NCBI GenBank assembly: GCA_015075375.1
Contig: JABTUM010000002.1
Span: 853,393 to 917,392 of the forward strand
Source: Planctomycetota bacterium
GTDB taxonomy: Bacteria; Planctomycetota; SZUA-567; H5-PLA8
Direction of reading: 5' to 3'
DNA length: 64,000 nt
Shown: piece by piece, positions 5,746-33,966 of the stretch
Position numbering within the stretch: position 1 is the stretch's first letter
How the letters are laid out: every line of letters starts with the position of its first letter
Made by a program: the position numbers and the translations under genes
Notes under the pieces: generated by a model
Seen by the model: the letters and a program-made list of their open reading frames with translations, nothing else
What the model was told of the DNA's origin: nothing
The model's database searches: none

Positions 5746-5763
5746 TCCCCCGCCCTCGGTGCA

Positions 5764-5790
5764 CAAAAAAACCGGCCCGAAGGCCGGTTC
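5764..5790 (-). terminator. Intrinsic terminator for the beta-barrel/decaheme operon: CCGGCC-ttcg-GGCCGG followed by TTTTTTT on the minus strand. It also forms a hairpin plus TTCTTT on the plus strand.
   Basis: It lies 30 nt downstream of the TAG stop at 5821-5823. It has a perfect GC stem and a 7-U tract. Confidence 0.6.
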
Positions 5791-5820
5791 TTTAGGAAGT
5801 TGCCTGCAAGCCGGGAGCGA

Positions 5821-8800
5821 CTATTCGCCCTTCAGCTTCTTCAGTTCCTGCTCGATCTTGCGCTTCTTGATCGGGTTCTTCTCGTTCGCCAAGGCCGCTT
5901 CCAACTCCTTGATCTTCTCGGCGTTGGCGCCGGCGCTGGCTTCCTTGATCTTCTTCTCCAGATCCTCGATGTCCTTCTGGATCTTGCGCTTCTTGATCGG
6001 GTTCTTTTCCTTCTCCAGGTCGGCCTTCAACGCTTCCAGCTTCGCTTCCAGTTCGGCCGTACCGCCGCCCGCGGCCTTCATCTCCAGCGGCTCGCCCGGG
6101 GGCTCGTTGGCGACGGAGAAGAACTGGCCGTCGAGCATGTACATCGCCTCCATTTCCTTCTTGTTGAAGGGCCGCGAACCGACGCGGTTGAAGACGCTGA
6201 GCTGATTGCCGCTCTCGTCCACCGCACGGTCGCGCTGGAGGCCTTCGCTGATGTTCAGCGCCACGCCCGGCAGGTCCTTCTTGGCGATGAGGAACGGCTT
6301 CGGTTCCGGCGACCAGCCTTCGAAGTTGGGTACCGTTTCGGGCGAGGTGAGCTGCACCACCGCCAGCCCGCGCTTACCGTTGGCCAGGTAGGCGAAGGAA
6401 GAGGTGTTGGTCATGCCCAGCTTCACGTCGCGGACGTCGTTCAGCCAGCCGTCGCCCGTGAACTTGGTGAAGAGCTTCGGCGCTTCGGCGTGTTCGATGT
6501 CCACGATCGCCAGACCTTCCGCGCCCGCCGCCACGTAGGCGTACGTGCGCGCCAAGTACAGGCTGTGCGCGTTCTGGAACGGCACCGTCGCGCCTTCGAC
6601 CAGCCGAGGTTTGTCGGGGTGCGTGATGTCGATCACCTTCAGGCCGTCGGCGTCCAGCACGAAGGCGTAGCGGAACTGGATGCGTACCGCGCGCGGCTTG
6701 TTCAGCGGCACCACGCTCAGCACCTTCAGTTCGTCCGGATTCGGCGCGCGCGCCTCCTCCACGACCTTCTTGATCTCCAGCTTCTTCTTGCCGTCCGGAT
6801 TCATCTTCAGCGCCGCTTCCACCAGCTCGGTGCCGATCTTGCTGATGTCCACGCAGACCAGGCCCGCATCGCTGCAGACCCACAAATTGGTCCCGGCCAC
6901 GATCCCGTGCGTGGAGCCCGTGAGCACCCCGTTGGGATTGAAGGTCAGATGGCGTTCGAGGAAGTTGTTCGTCGGATCGCCGTCCAGCAGCGTCGCGGCG
7001 TTGATCGTGAAGAGCCCTTCCTCGCGGTCCAGACAGTACAGGAACGCGTAGATCGGATGGATGCCCTGCTCCTGGTTCAACGGATCGCGGGGCATGAACG
7101 GAACCTGCCGCGTCGGGTCGACGCCCAGGACCGTCGGGCTGATCACCTGCGTGCAGTCCTTCGACTTCACGTACATGCGCTGGCCCAGCGGGCTGACCGG
7201 CGCGGTGCTGATGCGCTGGCTGAAGCCCTTGTTGTCGATGTTCGCGACGTCGTAGATCGTCACGCCGCCGCCCCCGCGCGCCGCGTACAGATATTCGCCG
7301 CGGAGCTGGAGCTGCTTCACCGTGCCGTACTTGCCGTACTCGTGTTCCAGCGACATGTCGCGCTCCAAGTGCTCGGCGTAGCGCTCGCGGAACGCGTCGC
7401 GGTGCAGCGTGCTGCCAATCACCGCTTGCGGCTCATCCTGTTCCGTCACCACCACCGCATGCGTGCCGCCGTCGTCACAGGCCACATAGACGTAGCGGTA
7501 CATGAAGTTGGTCGTGTTCGTGCCCAGCATCAGGACCTGCGACATCCAGGCGTTGTTGTCGCCGGCCTTGCTGACGTGGCAGTCGACGCACATCTTGGTT
7601 TCGCCGGCCCCGCGCACCGCGTGCGGATAGTGCGGGCTGAACGCCTGGCCGCTGAAGCCTTCGGCGCTGACCGTCTGCTGCTGGCTGTAGATCCACTCGC
7701 GCTGAGCGTTCTGCGAACCGACGATCACGGCGCAGGCCGAGCGGACCGGGGCGACCTTGTTGCCCTTGACCGTGCCGTCCAGACCCAGCATGAAGACGTC
7801 GCCGCGCAGCGTCTGCCAGTTGTACTGCGTCCAGTTGCGGCTGTGCGCGCCTTCGTAGTGGATGTTGTCGCGGTTCTGGTTCGCGCGCATCGGCAAGTGA
7901 CAGCCGAAGCACGAAGCCATCCACGACGTATGGCAGGTGTAACAGTCCATCTTCTCGGTCTTGTGCGCCAGGACGCTGGGGTCTTCCGGCACGTCGCCCC
8001 AAGTTTTGTTGTCCTTGCGCATCGTCTTGGCCAAGCGCGCCTTTTCGTTGTAGTGCGGATTGCCCGGGGTGATCGTGTCGATCACCTGCGGCACTTCCCA
8101 CTTCACGTTGGCGTCGACGGCCGACTGCTGCATCAACTTCCCGCCCAGCACGCGGAAGCGCTTGCCGAATGGCGTATTGCTCGCCGCCAAGTCCGTGCCG
8201 CCTTCCGGCGCCGCGTTGCCCGTCGTCTTCAGCGTCGCGCGCTTGTAGATCGTTCCGTGGCAGTCCGCGCAGGTGATTTCCGTCGCGTTGCGGACCTCGG
8301 TGTACAATAAGCCGTTGCCGTGGTTGTCGATGTTGAAGTGACAGTCGATGCAGTGCATCCCCTTCTCGAGGTGGATGTCCTGCATGTGCACGGCCGAGCC
8401 CGCGAGCGGCTCACCCTTTTCGCCCTTCTTGAATTTATTGGGCGCATCGTGCGCAACCTGCTTGCCGTCCTTGTCCAACAGGTTGCCCTTGCGGTCCATC
8501 TTATAAACGTTTTTATAGAGCCAGCCGTGGCCGTGGTAGTCGGCGAACTGGATCTGCTTGAACTGGTCGTTGCGTTCCCAGACCGACTCCATCCACTCCA
8601 CATCGCCCCAGCGCCCGCGCAGCGCCGCCGCTTCCGGATTGCGGTACTTGATCTTCAGCTCTTCGCGCTCCGACATGTTCGGCAGGTGGCTGTCGAGGTA
8701 CGTCTTGCTGCCTTCGGTCTCGTTGTCGTACCAGGTGTTGCCGTAGTAAGTGACCGTCACCGTCGTGCCGGGGTGCATATGGCAGACAACGCACTGGCTG

Positions 8801-10206
8801 GACGGGATCGAGCGCGTGAAGACGTGTTTGATCGGGTGCCCGCTCGACTTGCCCTTCTCGACCACTTCGCCCTTATCGTTTTCCTTGCCCGCGACGTGGG
8901 CCAGCGTGGCGTCCTTGCTGAAGGAATGCCCGCTCTTGCCGTATTTCGCGTACGGACCGCTGTGCGACGGATCGCGGTCGTTGGCGTAGATGACGTGGCA
9001 GGAACTGCAGCCCGAGCTGCGGTAGTCGCCGGCCTGATCGTTGGTGCCCGGGTGCCAGAGAATCGGGTCGAGCAGGCGCGTCTTCTGCAGGCCCAGGAAG
9101 ACCGGGTCGGTGCTCAGCAAGGTGCCGAAACCGCGGATCGAGAGCTTCAATTCCGGCTTGCCGCTCTCGTCGATTTCCACCTTGCCGGGCGTGATCTGCC
9201 CGATGGGCTGCGCCGTCTCGAGCAGCACGCGGCCGCCGCGCTCGAAGGCGCGCAGCACGTTGCCCGATTGGGTGATGTTGTAGCGCGGCAGCGGGTCCAG
9301 GTACGGCAGGATGCCGCGGTTCTTGATGTCGTCGTTCGTCGGGCGGAAGACTTCCCACTTGCCCGAGTCTTTGTTCTGCTTGAGCGACTGGATCCGCGCG
9401 GGCTTGCCGTCCCACATGTACGCTTCGCCGTAGCGGCCGTACTTCTGGTTGCTCGCGCCGTTGTTGTACAGCGCGGCGTTCCAGAGCATGCCGCCGTGCG
9501 CCATCATGCTGGTGCTAACGCGTTCGAAGTAGCCCGGATGGCAGCCGCCGCAGGTGAACTTCGCCACGCGCAGGTCGCCGGGGTTGATGAAGCGGATGAA
9601 TTCAGGGTCTTCCTTCATCCAGACCGCGCCGGTCCGCTTCGGCCAGGCGCTGGGGTGCTGCCCGCCGTGCGCGCCATGCGAACCGTGGGAACCGTGTGCC
9701 GCCGGCGTATCGCCGTGCGCCGCACCGTGAGCTTCTTCGGTCTTGGCGTGTTCGCCATGTGCATCGCCGGTTTTGGCGGCATGATCGGCCGGAGCCGCGT
9801 GCGCGGCCGGTTCGGCGTGAGCGCTGCCGTGGTCGTCGTGCTTCGGACCGACCAGCCCATGGTGGCCGATGTGGTACCACGGACCGCGGGCCTGTACGTG
9901 GGCTTCTTCCTTTGTCGTTGCCTGCCCGTTGCCGCCGTGGCAGTCGGCGCAGCCGATCTTGACCGCCTCGGACGCGTGCATGCTCGGGTTTTCGATCCCG
10001 ACGTGGCAACTCATACAGCCGGCGGACTTCTTGAGCACGTCTTCGTCGGATTGCGTCGTGGGAACGGACGTCATCCGGGGTTCGGGCGGGAAGTCCGAGC
10101 CTTTATCGTAGTACAAGTCGGCCGGGTGGTCACAACCCGTGCCCAAGGCCAACGCCGCCAGAAGCAGCGAGCCGCCCAACCAGGAAAGTTTGCGCATCCG
10201 TCCCAT
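5821..10206 (-). CDS. Decaheme c-type cytochrome lipoprotein fused to an LVIVD-repeat beta-propeller, with a C-terminal Lys-rich coiled-coil tail.
   Basis: It has a lipoprotein signal peptide (LLLAALALGTGC). Ten CxxCH motifs are present (CMSCH, CADCH, CGGCH, CSSCH, CVVCH, CIDCH, CADCH, CYTCH, CFGCH, CVDCH). LVIVD-type repeats follow (VTIYDVANID, LVCVDISK, LKVIDITHPDKP, LAIVDIEHAEAPK, LAVVQLTSPE). The tail contains a duplicated EKNPIKKRKI motif. Confidence 0.8.
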   Translation of the reverse strand: MGRMRKLSWLGGSLLLAALALGTGCDHPADLYYDKGSDFPPEPRMTSVPTTQSDEDVLKKSAGCMSCHVGIENPSMHASEAVKIGCADCHGGNGQATTKEEAHVQARGPWYHIGHHGLVGPKHDDHGSAHAEPAAHAAPADHAAKTGDAHGEHAKTEEAHGAAHGDTPAAHGSHGSHGAHGGQHPSAWPKRTGAVWMKEDPEFIRFINPGDLRVAKFTCGGCHPGYFERVSTSMMAHGGMLWNAALYNNGASNQKYGRYGEAYMWDGKPARIQSLKQNKDSGKWEVFRPTNDDIKNRGILPYLDPLPRYNITQSGNVLRAFERGGRVLLETAQPIGQITPGKVEIDESGKPELKLSIRGFGTLLSTDPVFLGLQKTRLLDPILWHPGTNDQAGDYRSSGCSSCHVIYANDRDPSHSGPYAKYGKSGHSFSKDATLAHVAGKENDKGEVVEKGKSSGHPIKHVFTRSIPSSQCVVCHMHPGTTVTVTYYGNTWYDNETEGSKTYLDSHLPNMSEREELKIKYRNPEAAALRGRWGDVEWMESVWERNDQFKQIQFADYHGHGWLYKNVYKMDRKGNLLDKDGKQVAHDAPNKFKKGEKGEPLAGSAVHMQDIHLEKGMHCIDCHFNIDNHGNGLLYTEVRNATEITCADCHGTIYKRATLKTTGNAAPEGGTDLAASNTPFGKRFRVLGGKLMQQSAVDANVKWEVPQVIDTITPGNPHYNEKARLAKTMRKDNKTWGDVPEDPSVLAHKTEKMDCYTCHTSWMASCFGCHLPMRANQNRDNIHYEGAHSRNWTQYNWQTLRGDVFMLGLDGTVKGNKVAPVRSACAVIVGSQNAQREWIYSQQQTVSAEGFSGQAFSPHYPHAVRGAGETKMCVDCHVSKAGDNNAWMSQVLMLGTNTTNFMYRYVYVACDDGGTHAVVVTEQDEPQAVIGSTLHRDAFRERYAEHLERDMSLEHEYGKYGTVKQLQLRGEYLYAARGGGGVTIYDVANIDNKGFSQRISTAPVSPLGQRMYVKSKDCTQVISPTVLGVDPTRQVPFMPRDPLNQEQGIHPIYAFLYCLDREEGLFTINAATLLDGDPTNNFLERHLTFNPNGVLTGSTHGIVAGTNLWVCSDAGLVCVDISKIGTELVEAALKMNPDGKKKLEIKKVVEEARAPNPDELKVLSVVPLNKPRAVRIQFRYAFVLDADGLKVIDITHPDKPRLVEGATVPFQNAHSLYLARTYAYVAAGAEGLAIVDIEHAEAPKLFTKFTGDGWLNDVRDVKLGMTNTSSFAYLANGKRGLAVVQLTSPETVPNFEGWSPEPKPFLIAKKDLPGVALNISEGLQRDRAVDESGNQLSVFNRVGSRPFNKKEMEAMYMLDGQFFSVANEPPGEPLEMKAAGGGTAELEAKLEALKADLEKEKNPIKKRKIQKDIEDLEKKIKEASAGANAEKIKELEAALANEKNPIKKRKIEQELKKLKGE
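5846..6007 (-). repeat. In-frame direct DNA repeat (ATCTTGCGCTTCTTGATCGGGTTCTT, two copies) encoding the duplicated KNPIKKRKI motif.
   Basis: Two copies of about 26 bp occur at roughly 5846-5871 and 5982-6007, inside the 3' end of the decaheme CDS. Confidence 0.5.
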
Positions 10207-10253
10207 GAGTCTCGTTCCGTGTTTCGTAGCGAGGGCCTAAGTCGAAAATCCGG

Positions 10254-12293
10254 CTAGTACTTGACGATGACGTTCATGAACCCCGAAAGCTGAACGCCGC
10301 TGGTGTCGTAAATCTTCTTGTACCCATCGAAAGGCTGCAGCGCCGCGACGCCGCCGGTCAGGATGATCTGCTGGTTCAGCAGCGGGCGGTAGATCAAGCC
10401 CAAGCTGTAATCCAAGCCGATCTCCTTGCTGATTGCTTCCTGCCCCAGCAGGAATTCCAGCGAGGTGGTGTCCGCGAACTTCAGGTAGTTAATGTTCGCC
10501 ACCGCGCGCAAGCTGGGCGTCAGTTCGGCGTCGTACCCGATGTTGAACAGGTGAACACCGGGGTTGACGAAGTTGGCCTGACCTTCCTCTTTTCCCGCGC
10601 TCAGGTTTGGAATCAGCGAGTTGCGGCTCTTCAGGAGCGTGAAGGTATTGCCCGCGCCGAAGCCTTGACGCACCCAGTAGCTGAATTGCCCGCCCGCGAA
10701 CTCGGGATTCTCGAAGATCGAATCGAAACCTTCGGCCTTGTCGTCTTCCGGATCTTCATCACCACTCGAATAGAAGTAGCTCGTGCGGAAGCGCATCCAG
10801 TCCCAGTCGTAGGACAGCTCGGCCGCGAACATATGCGCCAGGATGTCCGTCTGCTGGCCGGCGATCGGATTCAGCGTGTCTTCGCCGTAGGCAAGGTAGT
10901 ACTGGTGCGAAAGATTGAAGCGGCCGATGTGCCCGTTGCCGCCGAAGCCTACGTAGCCCACCTTGTTCGAATGCGGCTGTCCGCTGCCGATCGGCGTCGG
11001 GCGAACCGGAACCCCGTTCTGGTTGAATTCCACGCTTGCTTCTTCGACGCTCAGGCCCACCTGCCCGATGATGTTGTAGCCCTTCACAAACGTGTCCTGC
11101 CGAATCAGGTTCGCCAGGAACACATGCTCGTCTTTCATCTGGAAGAGCGTGTTGAGCCCCGAGTTCGTGTCCTTATTCAGCATTTCCCAGTAGGTGAAGT
11201 TGTACTGGAGGCGATTGTTCTCGTACGTGCCGAAGAGGCGCGCGCCGAGCTGGTTGTCGGCGAAGAGGAAGCCGCGGAAGTCGTGGTTGTAGAACTGAAT
11301 GCCTGCGCGGCCCGCGATGAAGTCGTAATTCGGGCTGATGTCCACGAAATGGTATTCGCCGAACAGTTCCTGGAACGCGATCTGGTGGTCCAGGCGGTCG
11401 CGGCCTTCGCGGCTGTCGATGTTCACCGCCAGCCGTTCGTCGGTGTTGATGTAGTTGATGTTGAAGACCGGCGTCACACGGGCTTCCCAAGCGCGCGGCT
11501 TGAAGGCCGTTTCGCCGCCGAAGAACTCGACCGAAAGGAAGAAGTTCTGCTGGACGAAGGTGGCTTCCGGCGAACCGAAGAAGTCGAAACTGCCCGGGCG
11601 GAATGGCGTATTGCCCGAGGGAGTCGGGATCTCCCGGAATTCGGCCGTCGTGTCCGAGCCGGCGTTGATGACCAGGAACTTATCCTGGCCCAGGATCGGG
11701 TAATCGCCCTTCAGTACGTTCTGGCGGTAAGGATTATGCCAGGCGTTGTTGGTGACGTGCCGGGGGCTGTGAGGGAAGCCGATACCCCAGCGGTTGCCCA
11801 CCGGCAGCAGCGGCTCCTGATCGATCGCCCAGCGCGGAACTTTATTCTTTTTCCATGCCGCGCGGCCCAATTCTCCGCCTAAGCGTCCGTTGGTCGGTTC
11901 GTCCTTCTTCTCGGCGTCGTGGTAGAGGTCCACGAGTTCCGGCTCATCCGGATCCTCGCGCTTGGCCTCTGGCTTAGGTTGCTCGCCCTCGGCGGCCGCA
12001 GCCGTCTCGGCGGGCTTGGCTTCAGCCGCGGGAGCCGCCGTGCCTTCGGCGGGCTTCGCTTCGGCCGCAGGAGTCGCGGGGGCCGCGGTCCCTTCGGCGG
12101 GCTTGGGCGCCTGCCCTTCCGCGGGCTTTTCGCCTTCGCGGAAGCGCTTGTAGCGCTCTTCTTCCGTTTCGGGCTTCGCTTCGGCTTCGCCGGCGCAGCA
12201 CCGCTGAGAGCCCAAGCCGGCGACCGTCGCAAGCAGCAGCACCCAGGAGGATAGAATGAGTCCGAGTGGGATTTTCACACGTGCAAGGTACAT
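10254..12293 (-). CDS. Putative outer-membrane beta-barrel (porin-like) protein with an N-terminal Ala/Pro/Glu/Lys-rich linker.
   Basis: It has a signal peptide (LILSSWVLLLATVAGLG) and 87 aa of AEAKPAEGTAAP-type repeats. A roughly 550-aa region with alternating hydrophobic/aromatic beta-strand patterns (YNFTYWEM, FNLSHQYYLAYG, LSYDWDWMRFRTSYFY) ends in an aromatic residue (...NVIVKY). No enzyme motif was seen. It sits directly upstream of, and co-oriented with, the decaheme lipoprotein. Confidence 0.45.
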   Translation of the reverse strand: MYLARVKIPLGLILSSWVLLLATVAGLGSQRCCAGEAEAKPETEEERYKRFREGEKPAEGQAPKPAEGTAAPATPAAEAKPAEGTAAPAAEAKPAETAAAAEGEQPKPEAKREDPDEPELVDLYHDAEKKDEPTNGRLGGELGRAAWKKNKVPRWAIDQEPLLPVGNRWGIGFPHSPRHVTNNAWHNPYRQNVLKGDYPILGQDKFLVINAGSDTTAEFREIPTPSGNTPFRPGSFDFFGSPEATFVQQNFFLSVEFFGGETAFKPRAWEARVTPVFNINYINTDERLAVNIDSREGRDRLDHQIAFQELFGEYHFVDISPNYDFIAGRAGIQFYNHDFRGFLFADNQLGARLFGTYENNRLQYNFTYWEMLNKDTNSGLNTLFQMKDEHVFLANLIRQDTFVKGYNIIGQVGLSVEEASVEFNQNGVPVRPTPIGSGQPHSNKVGYVGFGGNGHIGRFNLSHQYYLAYGEDTLNPIAGQQTDILAHMFAAELSYDWDWMRFRTSYFYSSGDEDPEDDKAEGFDSIFENPEFAGGQFSYWVRQGFGAGNTFTLLKSRNSLIPNLSAGKEEGQANFVNPGVHLFNIGYDAELTPSLRAVANINYLKFADTTSLEFLLGQEAISKEIGLDYSLGLIYRPLLNQQIILTGGVAALQPFDGYKKIYDTSGVQLSGFMNVIVKY
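11990..12130 (-). repeat. Coding low-complexity tandem repeat (KPAEGTAAPAxPAAEA) in the beta-barrel gene linker.
   Basis: Visible as repeated GGCGGGCTTCGCTTCGGCCGC-type units in the DNA and as repeats in the translation. Confidence 0.5.
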
Positions 12294-12525
12294 GAGTGTA
12301 CGAACCGCCCCCCAAGGCTAGTTGGTCCAGCCAGAAGGCCATATTTCAGGCGCGAAGGTTCACAGTCTGGTAACGAGGCATTCGTTTACCATAGTTCAAG
12401 CACGAGGGCAACGGAAAATAGCGTTTTTGGGTTGCCTGCACATGCGCTTGTGCTATGGTCCCGTCATCAACTTTGAAGCTGTTTGCGCGGGGCCATTCCC
12501 ACTGCGGGATACAAGGAGTTTTACC

Positions 12526-14721
12526 ATGTCCTTCAAGCCGGGACGCGCTACCTCTTATAAGCGCGTGGGGTTCCCATTTGCCGTTTGGGCCGCATTAGGG
12601 ATCGCCACCTCTGTTTTCGCTCAGACCCCTCCCCTGACTGTTGTAAATGATATCGCCAACGGTGGATTGGCGCCTCAGCCCGACCCGGCGCTCCTTGCTA
12701 CCGATGTCGATTTGATCCTCGCGCGCGCCGTGGCGCTGTTGACGAACCCCCGCATTGCTGAGGCCGGCATCATTGCGGTCACGGACCGCGAAGGCCACGT
12801 GCTGGGCGTATTGCGCATGACGCCCAGCGGCACGGACATCCGAATCAGCGAGCAGGCGATTCAAAAGGCTCGCACCGCCGGCTTTTTCCAGTCGGATTTC
12901 GGCGCGTTCACGACCTTGACGGCCGGATTCATCGTCCAAGAACATTTTCCACCCGGCTTTGGGAACCTCGAAGGCGGTCCGCTCTACGGCGTGCCGTTCT
13001 CGTCATTCCCCAAGGGAGCTGCCCTGAACTCTTATACGGGTGGCTTCGACGGACAGCTTCAGGTCCCACGTTTCATCGTCTTCGTCAACAACGTCAATAC
13101 GGGCGGTTCCGATCCGGACGGCATTAACCCGGAACGCCCGGCCGACGACAGCCAGTCGCTGGTCATTACGCCGGTGACGGACGATCTGGGCGGCGTGCCG
13201 CTCTTCAAACTGGGCGGGCTGCCTAAGGGCCGCTTGGGCGCCATCAAGCCGCATCGCCGCGGCGTGGGCGGCGTGGGCGTCGAGATCGACGGCTTTGGGA
13301 CCTTGGCCGACTACGGCACCGACCTTTCCCCCGGCATCATCGATGAAGGTGTCAACCGTCTCGCTCCGGGCGGATCACGTCGTGCACTGGAAGAGGCGAC
13401 CGCCTTCTTTGCGCAGGTTCCGTTCAAGCCGCCCGGTGGGGTGCAGGCTACGCGTGTGCTGGTCAACGGTTTCCGCTTCCCGTACGCCTTCCGCGCGGGC
13501 GCCGGCGTACGTGTGCGGCAGGCCGATATCGACGCGGTGCTTTTGGCCGGCGTGGGGACCTTCGGCACGCTGGAAGATTACCTCGATACGGACGGCGGCG
13601 AACGCGATCCCAACGGCACGCAGGTACCGGTCGGCGCGATTACCGAAGTCGTGGGCGGCGGCGGCGCCACCCGCGATACGCCGGAACAAGAATTCCCGCG
13701 CCAAGGTTGGGTGCCGCGCTACCTGCCGGTGGACAGCACCTTCCCCGCCACGGCGGACGGCGGCCTGACGACCGCGGACGTGAACCTGATCGTGGGTCAG
13801 GCGGCGGCGGTGGCCGAACGCACCCGCGCCGCGATTCGCCGCCCCATCGGCCAGCCGATGCGTATTTTCATCTCGGTCGTGGACCTCGCCGGCAACGTCT
13901 TGGGCGGCTTCCGCACTAACGATGCGACGGTCTTCTCCTTCGATGTCTCGATCCAGAAGGGCCGCACGGCCGCCTTCTTCAGCACCGATCAGGTCGGCTT
14001 CTCGGCGCGCGCCATCGGCTTCATGAGCCAAGTCATGTTCCCGCCGGGCTTGGGTCGAAATCCCACCGGTCCGCTTAGCGGCCTGTTGGGACCGGGTGGC
14101 GGCATCGATCCCGCCACGCTGGATGCCGACGGCGTTACGGGCGACCTGACCCAAGGCAGCGGATTGCTCAAGGAAATCAGCCACCTGCTCAATGACGAAG
14201 CCGTAGGTTTTGCGCCTGCCGACCTCGATGATGCCGTTCAGATCCTCTCTCGGCGCATGGTTCATATCCGCGACGGCCGCCTTAGCCCGCTCCAGTTGTG
14301 CATGACGGTCGCTTTGACGCTCGATGCGCGCGGCGTGGGTGCGGTGGCCACGACGGTGCCGAACGGGATCACCATCTTCCCGGGCGGCGTGCCGCTGTAT
14401 AAGGTGAATCCCAATACCGGTCAGACCGTGCTGGTCGGCGGCCTGGGCATCTCCGGCGACGGCGTGGACCAGGACGACGCGGCGGCCTTTGGCGGTTCGT
14501 TGGGCTTCCGCCCGGGTCCGGGGGTTCTTTGTGACGAAGCGAGCCCGCCTGCGATTCAGGCCGCTTTGCTGAACGCCGTGACCAAACTGCGCAACGAGTT
14601 CCCCAACCTGGGCCAGGGCGACGGGGTTCTGGACGTGCTCGAAGCGCGCATCCTCTCCGGAAACATCCTGCAGGGGTTGCGCTTGCCTTACATCAAGCTG
14701 CCCAGGAGTCCCGGGCGCTAA
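12526..14721 (+). CDS. Secreted protein with two GlcG/HbpS-like (DUF336) heme-binding domains.
   Basis: ATG at 12526 with a CAAGGAG RBS, and a signal peptide. Two segments match the DUF336 pattern (IIAVTDREGHVLGVLRMT...QKARTAGFF and ISVVDLAGNVLGGFRTND...IQKGRTAAFF). The end is domain-typical (GGVPLY...GGLGISGDG). Confidence 0.55.
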   Translation: MSFKPGRATSYKRVGFPFAVWAALGIATSVFAQTPPLTVVNDIANGGLAPQPDPALLATDVDLILARAVALLTNPRIAEAGIIAVTDREGHVLGVLRMTPSGTDIRISEQAIQKARTAGFFQSDFGAFTTLTAGFIVQEHFPPGFGNLEGGPLYGVPFSSFPKGAALNSYTGGFDGQLQVPRFIVFVNNVNTGGSDPDGINPERPADDSQSLVITPVTDDLGGVPLFKLGGLPKGRLGAIKPHRRGVGGVGVEIDGFGTLADYGTDLSPGIIDEGVNRLAPGGSRRALEEATAFFAQVPFKPPGGVQATRVLVNGFRFPYAFRAGAGVRVRQADIDAVLLAGVGTFGTLEDYLDTDGGERDPNGTQVPVGAITEVVGGGGATRDTPEQEFPRQGWVPRYLPVDSTFPATADGGLTTADVNLIVGQAAAVAERTRAAIRRPIGQPMRIFISVVDLAGNVLGGFRTNDATVFSFDVSIQKGRTAAFFSTDQVGFSARAIGFMSQVMFPPGLGRNPTGPLSGLLGPGGGIDPATLDADGVTGDLTQGSGLLKEISHLLNDEAVGFAPADLDDAVQILSRRMVHIRDGRLSPLQLCMTVALTLDARGVGAVATTVPNGITIFPGGVPLYKVNPNTGQTVLVGGLGISGDGVDQDDAAAFGGSLGFRPGPGVLCDEASPPAIQAALLNAVTKLRNEFPNLGQGDGVLDVLEARILSGNILQGLRLPYIKLPRSPGR

Positions 14722-14785: not shown

Positions 14786-14955
14786 TGGCATTTCCTGTGC
14801 TTTGGTAAGGGTTTGGAGTACCATACTGCCGCCTGAGGATGCACCGGAATTCGGCATGTTGCTTGGGGATTCATTGATGGCCGCGGCCACCTCGGCGCGT
14901 CTTTTGGGGACAGTCTTACGCGAGAGCTGCTGAGCAGCTCGAATTGGGAACCGGC

Positions 14956-16953
14956 ATGCTCCGCTCGATCTTCCGTTTCTGTGGCTCGCTCAAGCTGGCC
15001 ATTATCCTGCTCATCGTGCTTGCGGCCGCCTGTGCCTACGGCACGATCGTCGAAAGCAACTTCAATACCGAGGTGGCCCGCGCGTACGTGTACAACGCGA
15101 TGTGGTTCAACGTCTGGCTGGCGGTCCTGATCGTAAACCTGTTCTGCGCCGCGATGGTCCGCTATCCCTGGAAGCCGCACCTGACGGGCTTCGTGATCAC
15201 CCATGCCGGCATCATCTTGCTCCTAATCGGCGGGATCATCGACCGTCTTTGGGGCATCGAAGGCTTCGTGCCGCTCACCATCGGCGAAGCGCCCACCAGC
15301 ATCATGGAACTGCATGAGGAAGAAACCACGCTTTGGGTGGACGGGAAAGAGATCACGCGCACCCCGTTCAAGGTGGACCTGCTGAAGCAGAAGAAAGAAA
15401 AGAAGTTCAGCATGGAGACGGGAATCGAGGGCCTGGCGGTCGATTTCATCGACCTGGAGCCGGTGGCGGCGACGATCACGGGCCTGGAACCGGTCGAAGA
15501 CGATTCGGGCATGCCGGCGCTGCTCTGGACGCTGGACGCGCCGCAAATGGGCGGGGCGCACGACCAGGTCCTGTTCCTCAATCAGCAGGAAAATCTGGGT
15601 CCGGCCACGGTGAGCTTCATCAAGGGCCTCCCGCCCGAGCCGAACGCCTCCGCAACCACCCCCGAAGGGACGCCCGGCGAGGGCAAGATGGTTCCGCGCC
15701 GCGAGCGGCATTATCAGTTCTCCAAGGATGCGCTTAAGGATCAGGTGCCGGCGATCGTGGTGGCGGGCGAGGCGACCGGGGCGAAGTCGGAAGTCTCGGT
15801 CAGCGAGGACGGCCAGATCGTGATTTTGCGCGTCACGCTGGAAGGCAAGTCGGCCGATTTCGGCGTCCGCGGCAAGATCGGCCAGGATCAGCCGTTCGAA
15901 GGGCTGCCGGACTGGAAGGTGATCGTCCGGGGCTACTTCCCCAACTTCCGCATGCAGGGCAATCAGCCGGCGACGCTGAACGAGAAGCCCGAAAATCCGG
16001 CCGTCGCGTTCGAACTGGTCGGTCCGCTGGTCAAGGACGAAGGCCCCAAGCCGCAGGCGAATCCGCACGGCCAGCCGGCCGGTCCGCACGGCAAACCGGC
16101 GGGCGAATTCGGCGATCCGAACCTCAACCAGTTGACCTTCTTCCTGGGCGAGGACGGCAAGCTGCGCTATTTCATGAAGTCGCGCCAGAAGGGCGAACAG
16201 CGCGGCGACGTGGTCATGGGCGAAGCGTTCGAAGGGTTCATTCCGGGCTCGAAGATCTCGGTCAAGGAGTTCAACCCCAAGGCGCGCCCCAAATTCGCCT
16301 GGGCTCCCGTGGGCGATACGACCCCGATGGCCGCCAAGCGCCATGCCTACGGCTTGCACGCGCACGTCACGTACAACGGCGAGACGCAGACCCTGTGGGT
16401 GGGCAAGAGCGGCGATCCGTTGAAGCCGGTGCGCCAGGCGCTCACGTTTGGCGATAAGACCGTCGAACTGGCCTTCGCCGCGCGCACGATGGAACTGCCT
16501 TTCGGGCTTGAACTGGTTCAGACGGCCGCGCCGCACCAGGAAGGCCTGGAAGGCTCCAACGCCTTTGCGGCCTTCGAGAGCACGCTGCGCTTCGACGGCG
16601 ACCATCAGGCCAAAATCTACATGAACCACCCCACCACCTACCCCGTCACCGCGGCGGGGCCTTGGCTGGGGACGACGTACAAGTTCTCTCAGGCCAGCCA
16701 CGGCATGCTCTTGACACCCCCCCGCCCCGATTGGTCGGGGATTCAGATATTGCGCGATCCGGGCTGGGCGCCCAAGTGGGTGGGCTGTCTGATGATCTGC
16801 TTCGGCATCTTCACGATGTTCTACTTGAAGCCGTACTTTAAGAGCGGGCCGGTGAAGCGGACGGCGAAAGCCGCGCAGTCTCCGGCCGCCGCGGCCGCCA
16901 GCGCCGGAAAACTTGCGGCGGTCGCGCAGGAACAAGTCGGCAAGGAAGCTTGA
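14956..16953 (+). CDS. ccsB: Cytochrome c biogenesis protein CcsB/ResB (system II).
   Basis: The N-terminus (MLRSIFRFCGSLKLAIILLIVLAAACAYGTIVES) matches the ResB family start. There is a large periplasmic domain and C-terminal transmembrane helices. The gene is immediately followed by ccsA, 1 nt after its stop. Confidence 0.8.
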   Translation: MLRSIFRFCGSLKLAIILLIVLAAACAYGTIVESNFNTEVARAYVYNAMWFNVWLAVLIVNLFCAAMVRYPWKPHLTGFVITHAGIILLLIGGIIDRLWGIEGFVPLTIGEAPTSIMELHEEETTLWVDGKEITRTPFKVDLLKQKKEKKFSMETGIEGLAVDFIDLEPVAATITGLEPVEDDSGMPALLWTLDAPQMGGAHDQVLFLNQQENLGPATVSFIKGLPPEPNASATTPEGTPGEGKMVPRRERHYQFSKDALKDQVPAIVVAGEATGAKSEVSVSEDGQIVILRVTLEGKSADFGVRGKIGQDQPFEGLPDWKVIVRGYFPNFRMQGNQPATLNEKPENPAVAFELVGPLVKDEGPKPQANPHGQPAGPHGKPAGEFGDPNLNQLTFFLGEDGKLRYFMKSRQKGEQRGDVVMGEAFEGFIPGSKISVKEFNPKARPKFAWAPVGDTTPMAAKRHAYGLHAHVTYNGETQTLWVGKSGDPLKPVRQALTFGDKTVELAFAARTMELPFGLELVQTAAPHQEGLEGSNAFAAFESTLRFDGDHQAKIYMNHPTTYPVTAAGPWLGTTYKFSQASHGMLLTPPRPDWSGIQILRDPGWAPKWVGCLMICFGIFTMFYLKPYFKSGPVKRTAKAAQSPAAAAASAGKLAAVAQEQVGKEA

Positions 16954-16954
16954 A

Positions 16955-19009
16955 ATGATGACGAATGTGAAGCAAGTGTGGAGCCTGTGGGCGGCGGCGT
17001 TGCTGCTGGCCTTCAGCGCGGGCATGGCTTGGGCCGGCGAGGACCCGCACGGCGGCACGATCGATCCGCACGGGAAACTGGCCGATCCGCATGCCGGGCA
17101 CAACCACGGGTCCGATCCGCACGGCGCGCCGGCCGCCAACGAGGAACCCGAAGAGAAGCTCCCGCCGGCGGTGCTGGAAGGCGAACTGGATTTCCGCGCC
17201 ATCGAGAGCTTGGCGATTCAGGAAGGCGGCCGCAAGAAGCCGCTGCATACGTACGCCGTCGAAAGCCTGGAGCAGATCTGCGGGCGCTCCATCGCGCTGA
17301 TCAACAGCGCGCCGACCTTCAAAGACCCCTCCACCGGCGCTCCGCGCGAAGCCATCGACCTGTTCCTGGCCATGTGGCTCAATACGAGGCAGTGGTACAA
17401 AGAGCCCGTCGTGCTCGTTTCGCACCGTCCGCTGCGCGTCGAACTGGGACTCGATCCGGCCAAGAAGCATTTTTCCATCCAGCAGCTCATCGAGAATGAG
17501 GCGTTCAACAAGCTGTACGGGGAGGCCCTCGCCAAGCGCCACGCCGAGAAGGAAAAAGAGATGTCGGCGCTTGAGCAAGAAGCCGAACTGGTGGGCGCGC
17601 GGCTGGAATTGATGCGCAAGATCGTGACCGGGGAGGCCGTGCATATCGTCCCCCACCCCGCCGATCCGGACGGCACCTGGATCAGCCTGCGCGAGTTCCG
17701 TGCGATCGAGCAGAATCCGCCGCAGGCCACCGAGATCGTCGCGCAGCAGCGCTACAGCGGGAACGCCGAATTGGCTCAGAAGCTGGTGATGGATTACGCG
17801 AACAATTACAGCGAGGACCAGCTCTTCGCGCTCAACGATAAAGCCAAGCAATTCATGCTCGCCTACCGTGCGCGCGACAAGGAAGCCTTCTCCAAGACCG
17901 CCGCGGATCTGCGTACCTCGCTGGCCTCGATGAGCCCCGGCGTGTACCCCGACCAGACGGCGCTTTTACGCGAAATTCGCTTTAACGAAGCGCGCCCCTT
18001 CGGCAGCGCGTGGCGCTGGTACGTGATCGCCGCCATCGTCTGTTCCGTGGCCTTGAAGTTCGCCAACAGACCCTTCTACCTGGGTGCATGGGGCTGCTTC
18101 GTTCTGGGATTGGGTTACCACGTGTGGGGCTTCACCCAACGCTGCTTGATCGCGGGCCGTCCGCCGGTGACGAACATGTACGAATCGGTGATCTGGGTCG
18201 GCTTCGGATGCGTCGCGTTCGCGCTGGCCTTCGAAGCGATTTACCGGACCCGGTACTACCTCCTCGGCGGTGCGCTGGGCGGGTTCCTGTGCCTGATGCT
18301 GATGGATCTGGTGCCCTATTTCGCCGGGAATGCGCATCTGCCGGGCTTCGAGGCGAAGATCAACCCGCTCGTCCCGGTGCTGCGCGATAACTTCTGGCTC
18401 ACCGTCCACGTGCTCACCATCACCGCCAGCTACGCCGCCTTTGCGCTGGCTTGGCTGATCGCCCACGTGACGCTGGGCTCGTACATCGTCAATCCCGGCG
18501 CTCAGATCCGCCACCGCCAGTTGCATGGCTTCGTCTACCGAGTCGTGCAAGTCGGCGTGTTGCTCCTGGCCACCGGAACCATCCTGGGCGGCGTCTGGGC
18601 GTACTATTCCTGGGGCCGATTCTGGGGCTGGGACCCCAAGGAGACCTGGGCCTTCATCGCGCTGCTGTGCTACCTGGTCTTCTTACACGGGCGCTTTACC
18701 GGCTGGTGGGGCAACTTCGGGCTCAGCGTCGGAGCGGTGGTCAGCTTCGTTTCGGTGGTGATGGCCTGGTACGGCGTGAATTTCGTCCTGGGCTCGGGCC
18801 TGCACAGCTACGGCGCCGGCGCCAACATGGGCCAGCAATACGTCTTCGGACTGGTCTGCTTGGACCTGCTTTTCGTCACCGTGGCGATCTGGCGCAACTA
18901 CGCCTTCCGGCACGACTCCAACGCCGAAGAACCCGATGCCGACGCGGAAGAGAAGCTCACCGCCACCGACCCCATCGACGAAGAGCTGGAAGTCACCGCC
19001 AAAGCGTAA
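16955..19009 (+). CDS. ccsA: Cytochrome c biogenesis heme exporter CcsA/ResC with a roughly 300-aa N-terminal periplasmic extension.
   Basis: ATG at 16955 with a CAAGGAAG RBS. It has a signal peptide, then four DPH(G/A) repeats, then the CcsA core with the WWD signature (WGRFWGWDPKETWAFI). Confidence 0.8.
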   Translation: MMTNVKQVWSLWAAALLLAFSAGMAWAGEDPHGGTIDPHGKLADPHAGHNHGSDPHGAPAANEEPEEKLPPAVLEGELDFRAIESLAIQEGGRKKPLHTYAVESLEQICGRSIALINSAPTFKDPSTGAPREAIDLFLAMWLNTRQWYKEPVVLVSHRPLRVELGLDPAKKHFSIQQLIENEAFNKLYGEALAKRHAEKEKEMSALEQEAELVGARLELMRKIVTGEAVHIVPHPADPDGTWISLREFRAIEQNPPQATEIVAQQRYSGNAELAQKLVMDYANNYSEDQLFALNDKAKQFMLAYRARDKEAFSKTAADLRTSLASMSPGVYPDQTALLREIRFNEARPFGSAWRWYVIAAIVCSVALKFANRPFYLGAWGCFVLGLGYHVWGFTQRCLIAGRPPVTNMYESVIWVGFGCVAFALAFEAIYRTRYYLLGGALGGFLCLMLMDLVPYFAGNAHLPGFEAKINPLVPVLRDNFWLTVHVLTITASYAAFALAWLIAHVTLGSYIVNPGAQIRHRQLHGFVYRVVQVGVLLLATGTILGGVWAYYSWGRFWGWDPKETWAFIALLCYLVFLHGRFTGWWGNFGLSVGAVVSFVSVVMAWYGVNFVLGSGLHSYGAGANMGQQYVFGLVCLDLLFVTVAIWRNYAFRHDSNAEEPDADAEEKLTATDPIDEELEVTAKA

Positions 19010-20025: not shown

Positions 20026-21726
20026 CTACTTGCCGGCTTCCTTCATGATCTTCTCGATGTCCGGCAGGCCGTGGCCGCAGCGGACACAGTACTTGTAGTC
20101 CTTCGGCCATTTCACGCCGCATTCCGGACAGAAGACGAACTTACCCCATTCTTCCTTGGTCAGCGGCGCGCGCTTGGACGGATCTTCCTGGGCGGGCGGC
20201 GGCGTCGATTCGACCTTGGGCGGCGTGGCCGCAGGAGCCTCGGTCTTGGCTTCGACCTTCGGGGCTTCGGTCTTCGCTTCGGGAGCCGCGGCCGGAGCTT
20301 CGGTCTTCGCTTCGACCTTGGGCTCTTCGGTCTTGGCCGCGGGCGGCGGTTCGGGCGTCTTGGCTTCGGCAACGGCCGGAGCGGAGGCCGCGCCGCCGCC
20401 GGGGCCGCCCGGAGGCAGCGGAATCGCCGTCCCGCCCTTGAAGGTGTCCACGAGCGTCTTCGCCACGGGGATAAACTTCTTCTTGTCGAAGTCCTCGCGC
20501 GTGGCGAGCACTTCGTAAAGCTTGTCCATCGTCGCCTGCCGCGCGTCGGCGTCGCCCTTGCCTTCCTTGTCCAGAACCATCGAGAGCGAGGTGAGGGACA
20601 AGACAAGCTGCTCTGCGGCGCGGAAGCCGACGTTGCCGCAAGCTTCGCCTTCGGCGGCGATGCCCGAACGCCACTTGGTCGTCACTTCTTCGCTGAAAGT
20701 GAACTTGTCCACGGCATCGGCCAGCGCTTCCGCCGTTTTGGCCATTTCCTTCAGGGCCCCGGCGGCCTTGGCCGGATCGGTCCAGCCGTCGTGCGCCGCC
20801 TTGAGGTGTTTGTCCAGCTCGTCGAGCTTGGCCTTATCGACCAGCGCCGCGACGTGGCGCGTCATCAGCGCATGCGCGGCCAACTGGTAGTAGCTGTCCA
20901 CGACCAGGTCTTCGCGCGCCTTTTGCTCCAAGCGCCCGGCAAGCTGATACGCCGATTCGCGCAGCGCGACCGTCTGGCCCATCGCCCACGCTTTGGTCCC
21001 CGACCACGGCGTCTTGTCGCGCCAGTGGATCCAGGCTTCGTCCGAACTGAAAACGTGCAACTCGAAGGGAAGCTCGGGGTGGCCGGCCTGAATCAGTTCG
21101 GAGCTGATCTGCAAGTGGCAGGAGATGCACTGGTTGGCGCGGAACTTCATGTTCTTCGTGTCGTACAGCCCCCATTCGTCGTAGAGCTTCTGGGCGCCTA
21201 ATTCTTTGCGCAGCTTATCGGTCCAGCCCTTTTCGGTGTGCGCTTTGAGGTACTTGTCGGCCGGGCCGTGGCAGCTATCGCAGCTCACCCCGTCCTCGAT
21301 GCTGTATCCCTTGGCCTGAATGTCCTCGGGCTTGAGCACGATGCGCTTAGAGCCGTTGGCCAGGTGCAAACCGGACAGCGCATGGCAGTCGATGCACTTC
21401 TCGCTCTTCGTCGGATCCGGAATGTTCAGCTTCTTGGCTAGGTCCTTGGAAACATCGTTGGAGAGCGAGGTATAGGCCTTGGCATGCTTATCGTTGTTCG
21501 ACCAGACGTGATTTTCGTTGTGCCGGGTGGCGCCGCCCTCTTTGGGCGTCGCCGAACCGTGGCAGGCCGCCGCGCTGCACGCGCCCGCTCCGGTGTATTT
21601 GATCCCCTGCGGATCGGCCAGAACTTCGCTTTCCAAGCCGGTCCAATCGCTGAACGCCGCCAGCAGCGCCCCCAGCAGCACGACGGCGCCGATGGTAGCC
21701 CACTTTACCCGTGCACGAATCGCCAT
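20026..21726 (-). CDS. Membrane-anchored tetraheme c-type cytochrome with a TEA/AKTE-repeat linker and a C-terminal double zinc ribbon.
   Basis: It has an N-terminal hydrophobic anchor and four CxxCH motifs (CSAAACH, CIDCH, CDSCH, CISCH). A low-complexity AKTEAPKVEAKTEAP linker follows. The C-terminus is FCPECG...YCVRCG. Confidence 0.75.
   Translation of the reverse strand: MAIRARVKWATIGAVVLLGALLAAFSDWTGLESEVLADPQGIKYTGAGACSAAACHGSATPKEGGATRHNENHVWSNNDKHAKAYTSLSNDVSKDLAKKLNIPDPTKSEKCIDCHALSGLHLANGSKRIVLKPEDIQAKGYSIEDGVSCDSCHGPADKYLKAHTEKGWTDKLRKELGAQKLYDEWGLYDTKNMKFRANQCISCHLQISSELIQAGHPELPFELHVFSSDEAWIHWRDKTPWSGTKAWAMGQTVALRESAYQLAGRLEQKAREDLVVDSYYQLAAHALMTRHVAALVDKAKLDELDKHLKAAHDGWTDPAKAAGALKEMAKTAEALADAVDKFTFSEEVTTKWRSGIAAEGEACGNVGFRAAEQLVLSLTSLSMVLDKEGKGDADARQATMDKLYEVLATREDFDKKKFIPVAKTLVDTFKGGTAIPLPPGGPGGGAASAPAVAEAKTPEPPPAAKTEEPKVEAKTEAPAAAPEAKTEAPKVEAKTEAPAATPPKVESTPPPAQEDPSKRAPLTKEEWGKFVFCPECGVKWPKDYKYCVRCGHGLPDIEKIMKEAGK
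20205..20345 (-). repeat. Coding tandem repeat (AKTEAP/KVE units) in the tetraheme gene linker.
   Basis: Repeated CTTCGGTCTTCGCTTCG-type units appear in the DNA and as repeats in the translation. Confidence 0.5.
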
Positions 21727-23631: not shown

Positions 23632-24594
23632 TTAGTAGTAGAACGTCGCCTTCACGGCATGGAACGCCGAAAGCACCAGCAGCGCGTACGAGAGCGGCGC
23701 GTGCAGGAAGAGCCAGCAGTGAAGCCAGAAATGCAGGCGCTCCTGGAGTTTCAACTGGCGCCGTTCTTCGCAGATCGATTCCAGGTCGCGCAACGGCTCG
23801 TGCAGTGCTGCCGGCAGCAGCGTGCGCGTATGCTCGAAGAGCGCCATGCTGCTCTGCGGTATCGCCAGCTTCGTTTCTTCGGAGTACTCGCGGCCCAGGA
23901 ACGGGCGGATCACTTCGAGGTAAAACGCCTTGAGCGGCCCGCTGCCTTCCACCGGTCCGCCCGACCCGCCGCCACGGGCATGCGCCACGCGGCCCTTCAC
24001 GGCGCCTTGCGTGCGCACCGTTCCGGACATGCCGCCCGGCATTCGGTCCGCATCCTCGGGTTCCGCCGATTCCACGCCCAGCGGCCCGCAGAAGTTCCCC
24101 ACCAGCCGGTCGGCTTCGCGCCGCAGCGTCTCGATCACCTGCGGAATCTGCTCGAACGTGCTCTCCGCGGGTAACCGGTCCAGCATCGTCCGCGGGACCA
24201 GATTCTGCATGACGATCCCGAAGATGCCGCTGACGAGGACGATCGTAAAGAGGACCATCAGCCAGAAGCTGACGCCGTTTCCGAACTTCATTCCGGCGTG
24301 GAAAAGGATCAGCGGATAGGCCAGCAGACCCAGCCAGATGTGCGCCCGCAGCCAGCCTTGCACGCGCCCCAGCCGCCAGATGCGGAAGTGCTTACGCACC
24401 CCCAGCAAGCCGCAGAAGATCATCATCGAGTACCCGATGATGCCGAAGGTCAGCCCCGACCAACTGCCGCCGGACGGGCCGTTACCCCCGCCGCGGTAAG
24501 CGGCTTGGCTGTAGAACGTGTAGTAAGCGGCGGCCACGACGAAAGCGACGACCGTGAACGTAATCCAACTGCGATGGCTCTTATCGATGAGCAC
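23632..24594 (-). CDS. Polytopic membrane protein with conserved His in its transmembrane helices, possibly a b-type heme/quinol-interacting anchor. It is the first gene of the cytochrome operon.
   Basis: GTG start with a GGGGAG RBS. It has at least five predicted transmembrane helices with His in TM3 and TM5 (LAYPLILFHAG, HFWLHCWLFLHAPLSYALLVLSAFHAV). No recognisable enzyme motif was seen. Confidence 0.45.
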   Translation of the reverse strand: MLIDKSHRSWITFTVVAFVVAAAYYTFYSQAAYRGGGNGPSGGSWSGLTFGIIGYSMMIFCGLLGVRKHFRIWRLGRVQGWLRAHIWLGLLAYPLILFHAGMKFGNGVSFWLMVLFTIVLVSGIFGIVMQNLVPRTMLDRLPAESTFEQIPQVIETLRREADRLVGNFCGPLGVESAEPEDADRMPGGMSGTVRTQGAVKGRVAHARGGGSGGPVEGSGPLKAFYLEVIRPFLGREYSEETKLAIPQSSMALFEHTRTLLPAALHEPLRDLESICEERRQLKLQERLHFWLHCWLFLHAPLSYALLVLSAFHAVKATFYY

Positions 24595-33303: not shown

Positions 33304-33518
33304 GCTTCGTCCAAGGTGCGTCGTTTAGGAAGCTCAAGGTGCAGCTTTCTGATCCTACGATCAATAGGTGTAACGAACAAGCCCCAATATCCGGCACGCA
33401 AAAAACTCCTAACTGTAGTCAGAACACAGATCTACTGAATTACTTTACTGTTAGCAGAATGAAAAAGTGAAAGACTTGATCCGAAAATCATAGAACGGTT
33501 GTTCTGTAAATAGATACA

Positions 33519-33550
33519 GAGCTCCTCCCGCCTTTACTTGGCGGGCAGGA
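33519..33550 (-). terminator. Imperfect hairpin (CTCCTCCCGCC...GGCGGGCAGGAG) downstream of the Rieske gene.
   Basis: The 11-bp stem has one bulge. It lies in an AT-richer intergenic region with only a weak T-tract. Confidence 0.3.
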
Positions 33551-33594
33551 GAAATCCATCCGCGTAAATCTATAACCTTAATAATTATAATATG

Positions 33595-33966
33595 TTATAC
33601 GATCAGGAAGACCGTTTCCTGCTCCACCTGGATCTCATAGGTCTTGAGATGGCACTTATGTGGCTCGTGGAGGCTCTTGCCGTCCTTGAGGTCGAATTCC
33701 CAGCCGTGCCAAGGGCACTGTAGGATCTCCCCATCCCTACCCCATTTGTATTCGTTCGGCTTGGAGGGTACCCGAGTGCCGACCACCTTGCCTTTGCAGA
33801 CCGGAGCCAGTTCGTGCGGGCAGATGTTCAAGACCGCTCGATATTGCCCTCCAACATTGTAAACCCCTACCTCCCTTCGACCTACGGTGATTATTTTGCT
33901 CTGACCAGGTGGCAGTTCACTCACCTTGGCGACTTCCACTTTCGTCTTCTCGCGGTTGGCAACCAT
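33595..33966 (-). CDS. Rieske [2Fe-2S] ferredoxin-domain protein.
   Basis: Rieske motifs CPHE...(17 aa)...CPWHGW are present in a 123-aa protein. Confidence 0.8.
   Translation of the reverse strand: MVANREKTKVEVAKVSELPPGQSKIITVGRREVGVYNVGGQYRAVLNICPHELAPVCKGKVVGTRVPSKPNEYKWGRDGEILQCPWHGWEFDLKDGKSLHEPHKCHLKTYEIQVEQETVFLIV

Follow-up and report, generated by a model that had tools for sequence, protein, structure and literature searches.

What is encoded by the two adjacent genes at positions 5821–12293 of this stretch of Planctomycetota DNA, and do they build an extracellular electron conduit? The window, by which we mean the whole 64-kb stretch analyzed (64% GC overall), carries there, on the minus strand, an operon for a putative outer-membrane beta-barrel protein and a large multiheme cytochrome, which a first-pass annotation had likened to the Mtr/Pcc-type electron conduits. 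We conclude that the pair forms the conserved center of an envelope redox module that is very widespread among soil and water bacteria, and that its architecture differs from that of the Mtr type, where the barrel encloses a cytochrome.

Gene 1 (10254–12293, minus strand) encodes the 679-residue outer-membrane beta-barrel protein, and gene 2 (5821–10206, minus strand) encodes a 1461-residue fusion of a decaheme cytochrome c with an LVIVD beta-propeller. Both open reading frames (ORFs) carry a strong coding signal in their third-position GC bias (GC3), which is 0.81 for the barrel gene and 0.89 for the cytochrome gene; the former is also supported by its homologs and by an AlphaFold model. The products of genes 1 and 2 are identical to HS116_16450 and HS116_16445, respectively, of a Planctomycetes metagenome-assembled genome (MAG). 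The two frames are separated by a spacer of 47 nt (10207–10253, minus strand) in which no terminator-like site was found. About 30 nt past the stop codon of gene 2, the predicted RNA folds into an intrinsic-terminator-like hairpin (5762–5793, minus strand; −25.2 kcal/mol, z = −2.4) of up to 12 bp, with the core CCGGCC/GGCCGG and a UUCG loop, which runs into a U-tract. This hairpin is absent from the list returned by a simple terminator pattern scan. A sigma-70 promoter scan found no site, and its consensus may not apply to Planctomycetes. The operon consists of the barrel and cytochrome genes only, closed by a terminator as first described, and the two are probably co-transcribed.

Is the pairing more than an accident of this genome? 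Neighborhoods were counted in the best 80 loci among matches in at least 600 GTDB species (one genome per species); all 80 come from MAGs, for the most part of Acidobacteriota. In 74 of the 80 loci, or in 74 of the 76 that are testable once four without room at a contig edge are set aside, the barrel gene stands directly upstream of the cytochrome gene and in the same orientation. In the relatives a short gap separates the two genes, or they overlap, as they do by 20 nt in L081; consecutive NCBI locus tags place the two genes together in five further MAGs; and on the peat contig L081 the pair sits among housekeeping genes. In L061, two unrelated genes are inserted between barrel and cytochrome. 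This synteny rules out chance adjacency, and the co-occurrence that the first-pass annotation had asked to see is tight across phyla. The pair is an autonomous, conserved unit. As a separate observation, L078, a 6.9-kb contig of 48% GC labelled Candidatus Kuenenia stuttgartiensis (a putative binning), is a true exception: the barrel gene is not upstream, and the flanks hold a class III nucleotide-cyclase-like gene upstream and an NHL-repeat protein downstream.

The family to which the cytochrome belongs is large. Its homologs fall into at least 7,600 clusters at 90% identity, nearly all labelled 'hypothetical protein', and they are about 50% identical across phyla over nearly their full length. 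An exhaustive search of representatives at 50% identity returned 393 at E ≤ 1e-30, many of them fragments; with at least 7,600 clusters at the one level but 393 representatives at the other, the family is numerous yet compact in sequence space. Hosts span at least 600 GTDB species, mostly Acidobacteriota, with Planctomycetota, Rokubacteria/Methylomirabilota (Methylomirabilia) and others. Every listed member is a MAG or metagenome sequence, including those from a second homolog search with a Bryobacteraceae copy and from look-ups of a cluster and a contig, and no cultured host is among them. Because the cytochrome-LVIVD fusion recurs in at least 600 species, it is the defining architecture of the family and not a peculiarity of the window gene; what had been called an unusual fusion is the norm. 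Compared with the window proteins, relatives are 49.7% identical in the cytochrome, 44.8% in the barrel and 29–30% in the accessory cytochromes encoded nearby. The core pair evolves under an enzyme-like constraint.

The conservation of the cytochrome was read from alignments of 22 and of 62 members. Its heme domain (residues ~61–880; 7567–10026, minus strand) contains ten CxxCH motifs and no more; they start at residues 64, 86, 219, 400, 472, 619, 646, 755, 766 and 873 and use 20 of the 27 Cys of the protein. All ten are invariant in both alignments, so their number is not the product of chance. Averaged over its columns, the 22-member alignment is 51% identical, and the heme domain and the propeller alike contain dozens of non-heme residues that never vary. 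The propeller (residues ~900–1380; 6067–7509, minus strand) has one repeat that is significant against Pfam LVIVD (PF08309; 43.1 bits versus a cutoff of 20.2, with homologs at 73–78 bits), and motif inspection places blades at residues 903, 972, 1052, 1108, 1178, 1222 and 1271, or about seven in all. The ten heme sites and the multi-blade propeller read in the first pass are therefore both present. We note in addition that C825 (window ~7732–7734, motif PVRSACAV), a free Cys in the heme domain, is the only family-invariant Cys outside the heme motifs; it might serve as an axial ligand of a heme or as the thiol of an active site.

Around this body of about 1,250 residues, which ends near residue 1365–1380, the protein varies. 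The signal peptide (10132–10206, minus strand) ends in a lipobox-like LALGTGC with Cys25 and Asp at +2; it bears out the lipobox proposed earlier, with the qualification that it is non-canonical at −3, yet it aligns with the canonical LSGC lipoboxes of close relatives. Lipoboxes occur in the planctomycete clade and part of the Acidobacteriota, and many other members have plain, Cys-free signal peptides. A low-complexity insert rich in His, Ala and Gly (residues 105–190, between hemes 2 and 3; 9637–9894, minus strand; model confidence, pLDDT, below 50) holds 17 His in 86 residues and may be a metal-binding segment; the first-pass annotation had overlooked it. Across the planctomycete clade this insert ranges in length from 83 to 169 residues, with 3–18 His, and it is absent from Acidobacteriota. 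At the other end lies a charged, coiled-coil-like tail (residues 1381–1461; 5824–6066, minus strand) with copies of EKNPIKKRKI at residues 1400 and 1442. The first-pass annotation had described this tail as Lys-rich and polycationic and suited to binding anionic minerals or polymers. The two repeats are there; however, the 22 Lys or Arg are nearly balanced by 18 Asp or Glu in 81 residues, so that the tail is mixed-charge with a net charge of about +4. The repeat, E[KR]NP[AI]KK[KR]K in general form, is confined to the planctomycete clade, and acidobacterial members have short charged tails. We therefore rejected the tail as a polycationic mineral binder. Several acidobacterial cytochromes end in a hydrophobic helix followed by a basic cluster, and in three of them some 65 residues extend beyond the helix. 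As judged from these comparisons, the charged tail, the His-rich insert and the lipid anchor are lineage-specific parts. The variation in tails, lipoboxes and C-terminal helices indicates that anchoring is flexible around a strongly constrained body.

To what known cytochromes is the heme domain related? The nearest named family is Geobacter ExtM (NCBIfam NF040943), which matches residues 608–880, covering hemes 6–10, at E 1.5e-28; the score of 99.5 bits against an equivalog cutoff of 800 places the protein outside that family. A PDB profile search matched only octaheme nitrite reductase (ONR) and NrfA, in two collinear di-heme segments, and this similarity is weak (E 5e-4 with the 22-sequence alignment and 3e-5 with 62 sequences). 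A single-sequence PDB search gave no match for the cytochrome, and a fold search with a heme-domain model, itself of poor quality, yielded no fold match. Some homologs fall just short of the MtrC/MtrF domain II/IV model, with 29.2 bits where 30 are required; the window cytochrome is not reported by this model at E ≤ 1.

What kind of protein is the product of gene 1? In an AlphaFold2 model built with a 74-sequence alignment (mean pLDDT 79.8, predicted template-modeling score 0.73), residues 205–679 (10257–11681, minus strand) are predicted to form a barrel of 18 long beta-strands, with pLDDT above 90 over most of the domain, and the N-terminal ~200 residues are disordered. Within that N-terminal region, residues 34–135 (11889–12194, minus strand; pLDDT below 50) make up a linker with 25 Ala, 14 Pro, 22 Glu and 10 Lys. 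The signal peptide, the linker and the terminal aromatic residue (...VIVKY) had all been read correctly from the sequence, and the fold prediction likewise returned a barrel rather than a non-barrel protein. Strands 13 and 14 are joined by a confidently modelled 70-residue loop that is the most conserved part of the barrel, as expected of a specific constriction or binding site. More than 1,200 barrel homologs were found, none of them assigned a Pfam family. The Pfam Alginate_exp model gives E 0.15 and 11.3 bits against a cutoff of 25.2, so the protein does not belong to AlgE/OprD by sequence, and a Desulfovibrio porin model matches at 2.8e-4, far under its cutoff. A PDB profile search gave no match and a single-sequence PDB search only a chance match (E 0.58). 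Neither Pfam nor the model shows a POTRA or TPR domain, and the sequence has no heme motif. On the strength of the model, the protein is a true outer-membrane beta-barrel of the AlgE/OprD 18-strand channel class and not a cytochrome sheath. We also observed that in acidobacterial homologs (L081:7894-10020, P0197, P0232, P0235 and P0239) an N-terminal CarboxypepD_reg or Big_13 domain replaces the linker; the periplasmic N-terminal module thus appears to be swapped between lineages.

How does the pair compare with the conduits to which it was likened? The likeness lies in a barrel gene co-transcribed, here probably, with that of a decaheme lipoprotein, with inner-membrane and periplasmic multiheme partners nearby. 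The assignment to the Mtr/Pcc type did not survive: the operon includes no gene for a heme-dense periplasmic cytochrome of the MtrA/OmaB type, and no Mtr/Pcc family model reaches its threshold. The DmsE model (TIGR03508) leaves the operon cytochrome unmatched and picks up only the c554-like protein described below (c554_566), at E 0.021. MtrB has 26 strands (PDB 6R2Q). In contrast to such a 26-strand sheath, the barrel here is an 18-strand one of the AlgE/OprD class, and its model is not wide enough to enclose a multiheme cytochrome. The cytochrome differs as well, being heme-sparse, propeller-fused and highly conserved; with 0.68 hemes per 100 residues and about 50% identity across phyla, it looks unlike a fast-evolving surface wire. 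The closer comparison for the barrel is with AlgE and the OprD/Occ channels, whose 18-strand monomeric fold is found in the predicted model, although sequence identity is only 10–15%, the gene context is a cytochrome rather than alginate or nutrient uptake, and the window barrel has an extra N-terminal region of ~200 residues.

Other systems share some of these elements. The Geobacter extHIJKLMNOPQS cluster likewise encodes a porin-like protein of the outer membrane along with several multiheme cytochromes and a b-type component of the membrane. Its ExtM is an uncharacterized 68-kDa protein with 12 hemes and without a propeller, encoded together with the porin-like ExtI, which has been implicated in letting in selenite or tellurite as a soluble acceptor (PMC5877670). 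However, the rhodanese, Rieske protein and selenoprotein of that cluster are absent here, and ExtI models do not match the window barrel. Propellers that accompany multiheme cytochromes and an outer-membrane barrel have been described in uncultured soil and sediment bacteria, namely in the peat 'EET1' system (bioRxiv 10.64898/2026.05.27.727921), a SEEP-SRB1 operon (PMC5539420) and the Tenderiales uet genes (bioRxiv 10.1101/2022.05.06.490989), where EET stands for extracellular electron transfer. In these the propeller is a separate six-bladed NHL/DUF5128 protein and the barrel is described as MtrB-like, whereas here the LVIVD propeller and the cytochrome form a single protein, whose barrel partner is AlgE-like. 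We rejected the peat EET1 as the same system, since it consists of three separate genes for a porin, an NHL propeller and a cytochrome c. The selection made in the peat preprint favored heme-dense, compact cytochromes, and a heme-sparse family may have received low priority in it. Finally, the NrfA-NrfH, HAO-c554-cM552 and ONR enzymes share with the cytochrome a large polypeptide-to-heme ratio and high conservation, they are its sole PDB sequence matches, and c554-like and membrane-anchored multiheme partners are present here too; the similarity is nevertheless limited to two di-heme segments, with no CxxCK or other catalytic-heme signature. No published description of the cytochrome-LVIVD fusion or of the barrel-cytochrome pair was found in a literature coverage that is incomplete.

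The neighborhood of the pair holds further redox genes, which are met beside it in other phyla as well and fit an envelope electron-transfer system with inner-membrane and periplasmic cytochromes. A polytopic membrane protein (23632–24594, minus strand; 35 of 80 loci) has four predicted transmembrane segments and conserved His pairs, and is a candidate di-heme-b transmembrane electron carrier. A homolog weakly matches Pfam Ferric_reduct (1.7e-3, 18.8 bits versus a cutoff of 28) and DUF4405 (3.6e-3), and the window protein itself is not matched by Ferric_reduct. Directly after it, again in 35 of the 80 loci, comes an N-terminally membrane-anchored decaheme cytochrome c with ten CxxCH (21823–23586, minus strand). 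A c554-like cytochrome with three CxxCH and one CX4CH (20026–21726, minus strand; 26 of 80 loci) matches Pfam Cytochrome_C554 at 4e-7 and NCBIfam Cyt554_Nsmonas at 1e-7, the latter below threshold. In many relatives further genes precede this set: a NuoE/F fusion gene (Complex1_51K, 1e-40) is found in 20 of the 80 loci and a 720-residue iron–sulfur (FeS) protein with NuoG-type clusters and three cyclic-nucleotide (cNMP)-binding domains in 38, on the same strand with near-zero gaps and immediately upstream of the membrane-protein/decaheme pair. Because they adjoin the membrane partner, we retained these genes as related to the module; the arrangement is seen in acidobacterial, Methylomirabilia and some planctomycete loci. 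The full four-gene operon of NuoE/F fusion, FeS protein, di-heme-b-like membrane protein and decaheme occurs, for example, at L018:13643-19767 (minus strand) and L007:13651-19940. It suggests an NOX-like route that would carry electrons from cytoplasmic NADH to periplasmic hemes without a quinone.

We propose, with confidence somewhat short of even, that the cytochrome-propeller works as a terminal oxidoreductase facing the periplasm, and that it more likely reduces than oxidizes its substrate. It would be held beneath the outer membrane, next to a channel of its own for that substrate or for a shuttle. Electrons would leave the inner membrane through the di-heme-b-like membrane protein and pass by way of the anchored decaheme to the c554-like cytochrome, the chain being fed in many relatives by a NuoEF-type NADH-oxidizing module. 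The channel would let a redox substrate in or out, which might be a shuttle or else an electron acceptor, whether soluble or oligomeric, and in the window lineage the enzyme would in addition be lipid-anchored. Where the protein sits, which way its electrons run and whether a diffusible substrate exists we infer as follows. A periplasmic position is suggested because many members are unanchored, some have a C-terminal helix, and the barrel has a periplasmic N-terminal module; outward flow is probable because relatives attach an NADH-oxidizing module to the membrane partner; and a channel-enzyme arrangement is suggested by the barrel class, the lack of an MtrA-like insert, the low heme density and the high conservation. 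Several observations weigh against this proposal. The cytochrome sequence has no CxxCK or other atypical catalytic-heme motif, and at least 12 invariant non-motif His would suffice to make each of the ten a bis-His heme for electron transfer. The 64-kb window has neither NuoEF nor FeS genes, so that the argument for outward flow is borrowed from relatives. The lipobox of the window lineage's cytochrome fits surface display equally well, and so does the first description of LVIVD repeats in cell-surface proteins (PMC2447325).

The main rival, which we consider somewhat less likely, is a relaxed form of the first-pass reading. It places the cytochrome-propeller on the outside of the cell, where a lipid anchor or the barrel would hold it, as a terminal EET reductase of minerals, humics or particulate organic matter, with the barrel serving for docking and electron passage. 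The lipobox in the planctomycete clade, the surface association of LVIVD repeats (PMC2447325), the strictly conserved pair and the complete-looking cytochrome chain from inner membrane to periplasm all agree with this, as do the separate propeller genes that recur in candidate EET operons (PMC5539420; Tenderiales uet; peat EET1) and the homologs that come within a bit of the MtrC/MtrF II/IV threshold (29.2 versus 30). Yet an 18-strand barrel is too narrow, compared with the 26-strand MtrB, to sheath a multiheme protein; the pair lacks an MtrA-like partner and the barrel a heme motif; many members are unanchored, and some carry C-terminal membrane helices; and very high conservation at low heme density is unlike known surface cytochromes. 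These same features are those by which the periplasmic channel-enzyme is preferred.

The direction of flow could also be reversed. A reduced inorganic substrate, for example Fe(II), Mn(II) or a reduced compound of sulfur or nitrogen, would then enter through the channel and be oxidized by the cytochrome-propeller, and the c554-like cytochrome would relay the electrons to the membrane, on the model of HAO to c554 to cM552. This seems rather improbable. The c554-like partner is present, although its c554 similarity is below threshold, and the PDB relatives are NrfA/ONR-type enzymes. In TsdA and SoxA, a Cys serves as heme ligand or persulfide site, and the invariant free C825 is a possible heme ligand or persulfide site here; the planctomycete clade has its His-rich, metal-binding-like insert, and many hosts come from largely aerobic soil lineages. 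However, NuoEF/FeS genes upstream of the membrane partner in 20–38 of the 80 loci suggest NADH-driven outward flow, direct reduction of NAD+ by such donors is energetically unlikely, and the conserved neighborhood showed neither a terminal oxidase nor Calvin-cycle genes. A very improbable alternative makes the barrel a device that secretes or anchors the cytochrome, like Slam or two-partner secretion, and transports neither solute nor electrons. Such a role would explain a barrel encoded immediately before its single partner, which in the planctomycete clade is a lipoprotein, but POTRA and TPR domains are absent from the barrel protein, and a folded heme protein of 1,250 residues could not get through an 18-strand lumen that a conserved loop already fills in part.

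Acidobacteriota belong to the most abundant bacteria in soil, and their anaerobic respiration is poorly understood. The two-gene core is present in at least 600 species-level genomes of several phyla, is as well conserved as core enzymes are and lacks functional annotation. Screens for EET based on heme density are likely to rank the family low. If the cytochrome-propeller is a terminal reductase or oxidase, it would be a widespread and testable component for models of soil and peat redox cycling, and modules of outer-membrane barrel and cytochrome would not all be built on the Mtr plan. A bolder form of our proposal, which we consider unlikely, is that the decaheme-propeller oxidoreductase and its AlgE-like channel constitute a new class of respiratory terminal enzyme, in many Acidobacteriota fed straight from cytoplasmic NADH by way of the NuoEF/FeS module and a NOX-like di-heme-b membrane protein, so that the quinone pool is bypassed; if such an NADH-fed enzyme were real, it would represent a major unrecognized anaerobic electron route to soluble or humic acceptors in a dominant soil phylum.

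Finally, we note several features around the module. The divergent neighbor of the barrel gene encodes an HbpS-like (DUF336/GlcG-type) secreted protein (12322–14721, plus strand; Pfam HbpS-like, 1e-16), and such a gene lies near the pair in 53 of the 80 loci, mostly divergent from the barrel gene. Its ORF is listed from a TTG; the start, with a signal peptide, is probably at Met68 (~12523), and the protein apparently has two HbpS/GlcG-like regions, at residues ~120–220 and ~500–720. Next to it, ResB-like and CcsA-like genes for System II cytochrome c maturation (14944–19009, plus strand; Pfam ResB and Cytochrom_C_asm) are adjacent to the module in the window genome specifically, as CcsA lies near the pair in only 2 of the 80 loci. 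Sth and PFK clusters, which arose together with the NuoF cluster from de novo clustering of ORFs as possible module parts, were rejected as lineage synteny only. The c554-like and anchored decaheme cytochromes both end in an Ala/Pro/Glu/Lys/Thr-rich linker and a zinc-ribbon motif (CPxCG...CxRCG), an odd ending for exported proteins that is absent from the shorter acidobacterial homologs. The charged linker at the N-terminus of the barrel resembles those of the accessory cytochromes, and these linkers may be spacers for an enlarged planctomycete periplasm. Elsewhere in the window, positions 32001–36000 have a GC content of 0.56–0.58 against ~0.64 in the rest; this segment covers the end of a 1294-residue Ser/Thr kinase gene, a stretch without a confident ORF, and an amidohydrolase gene.

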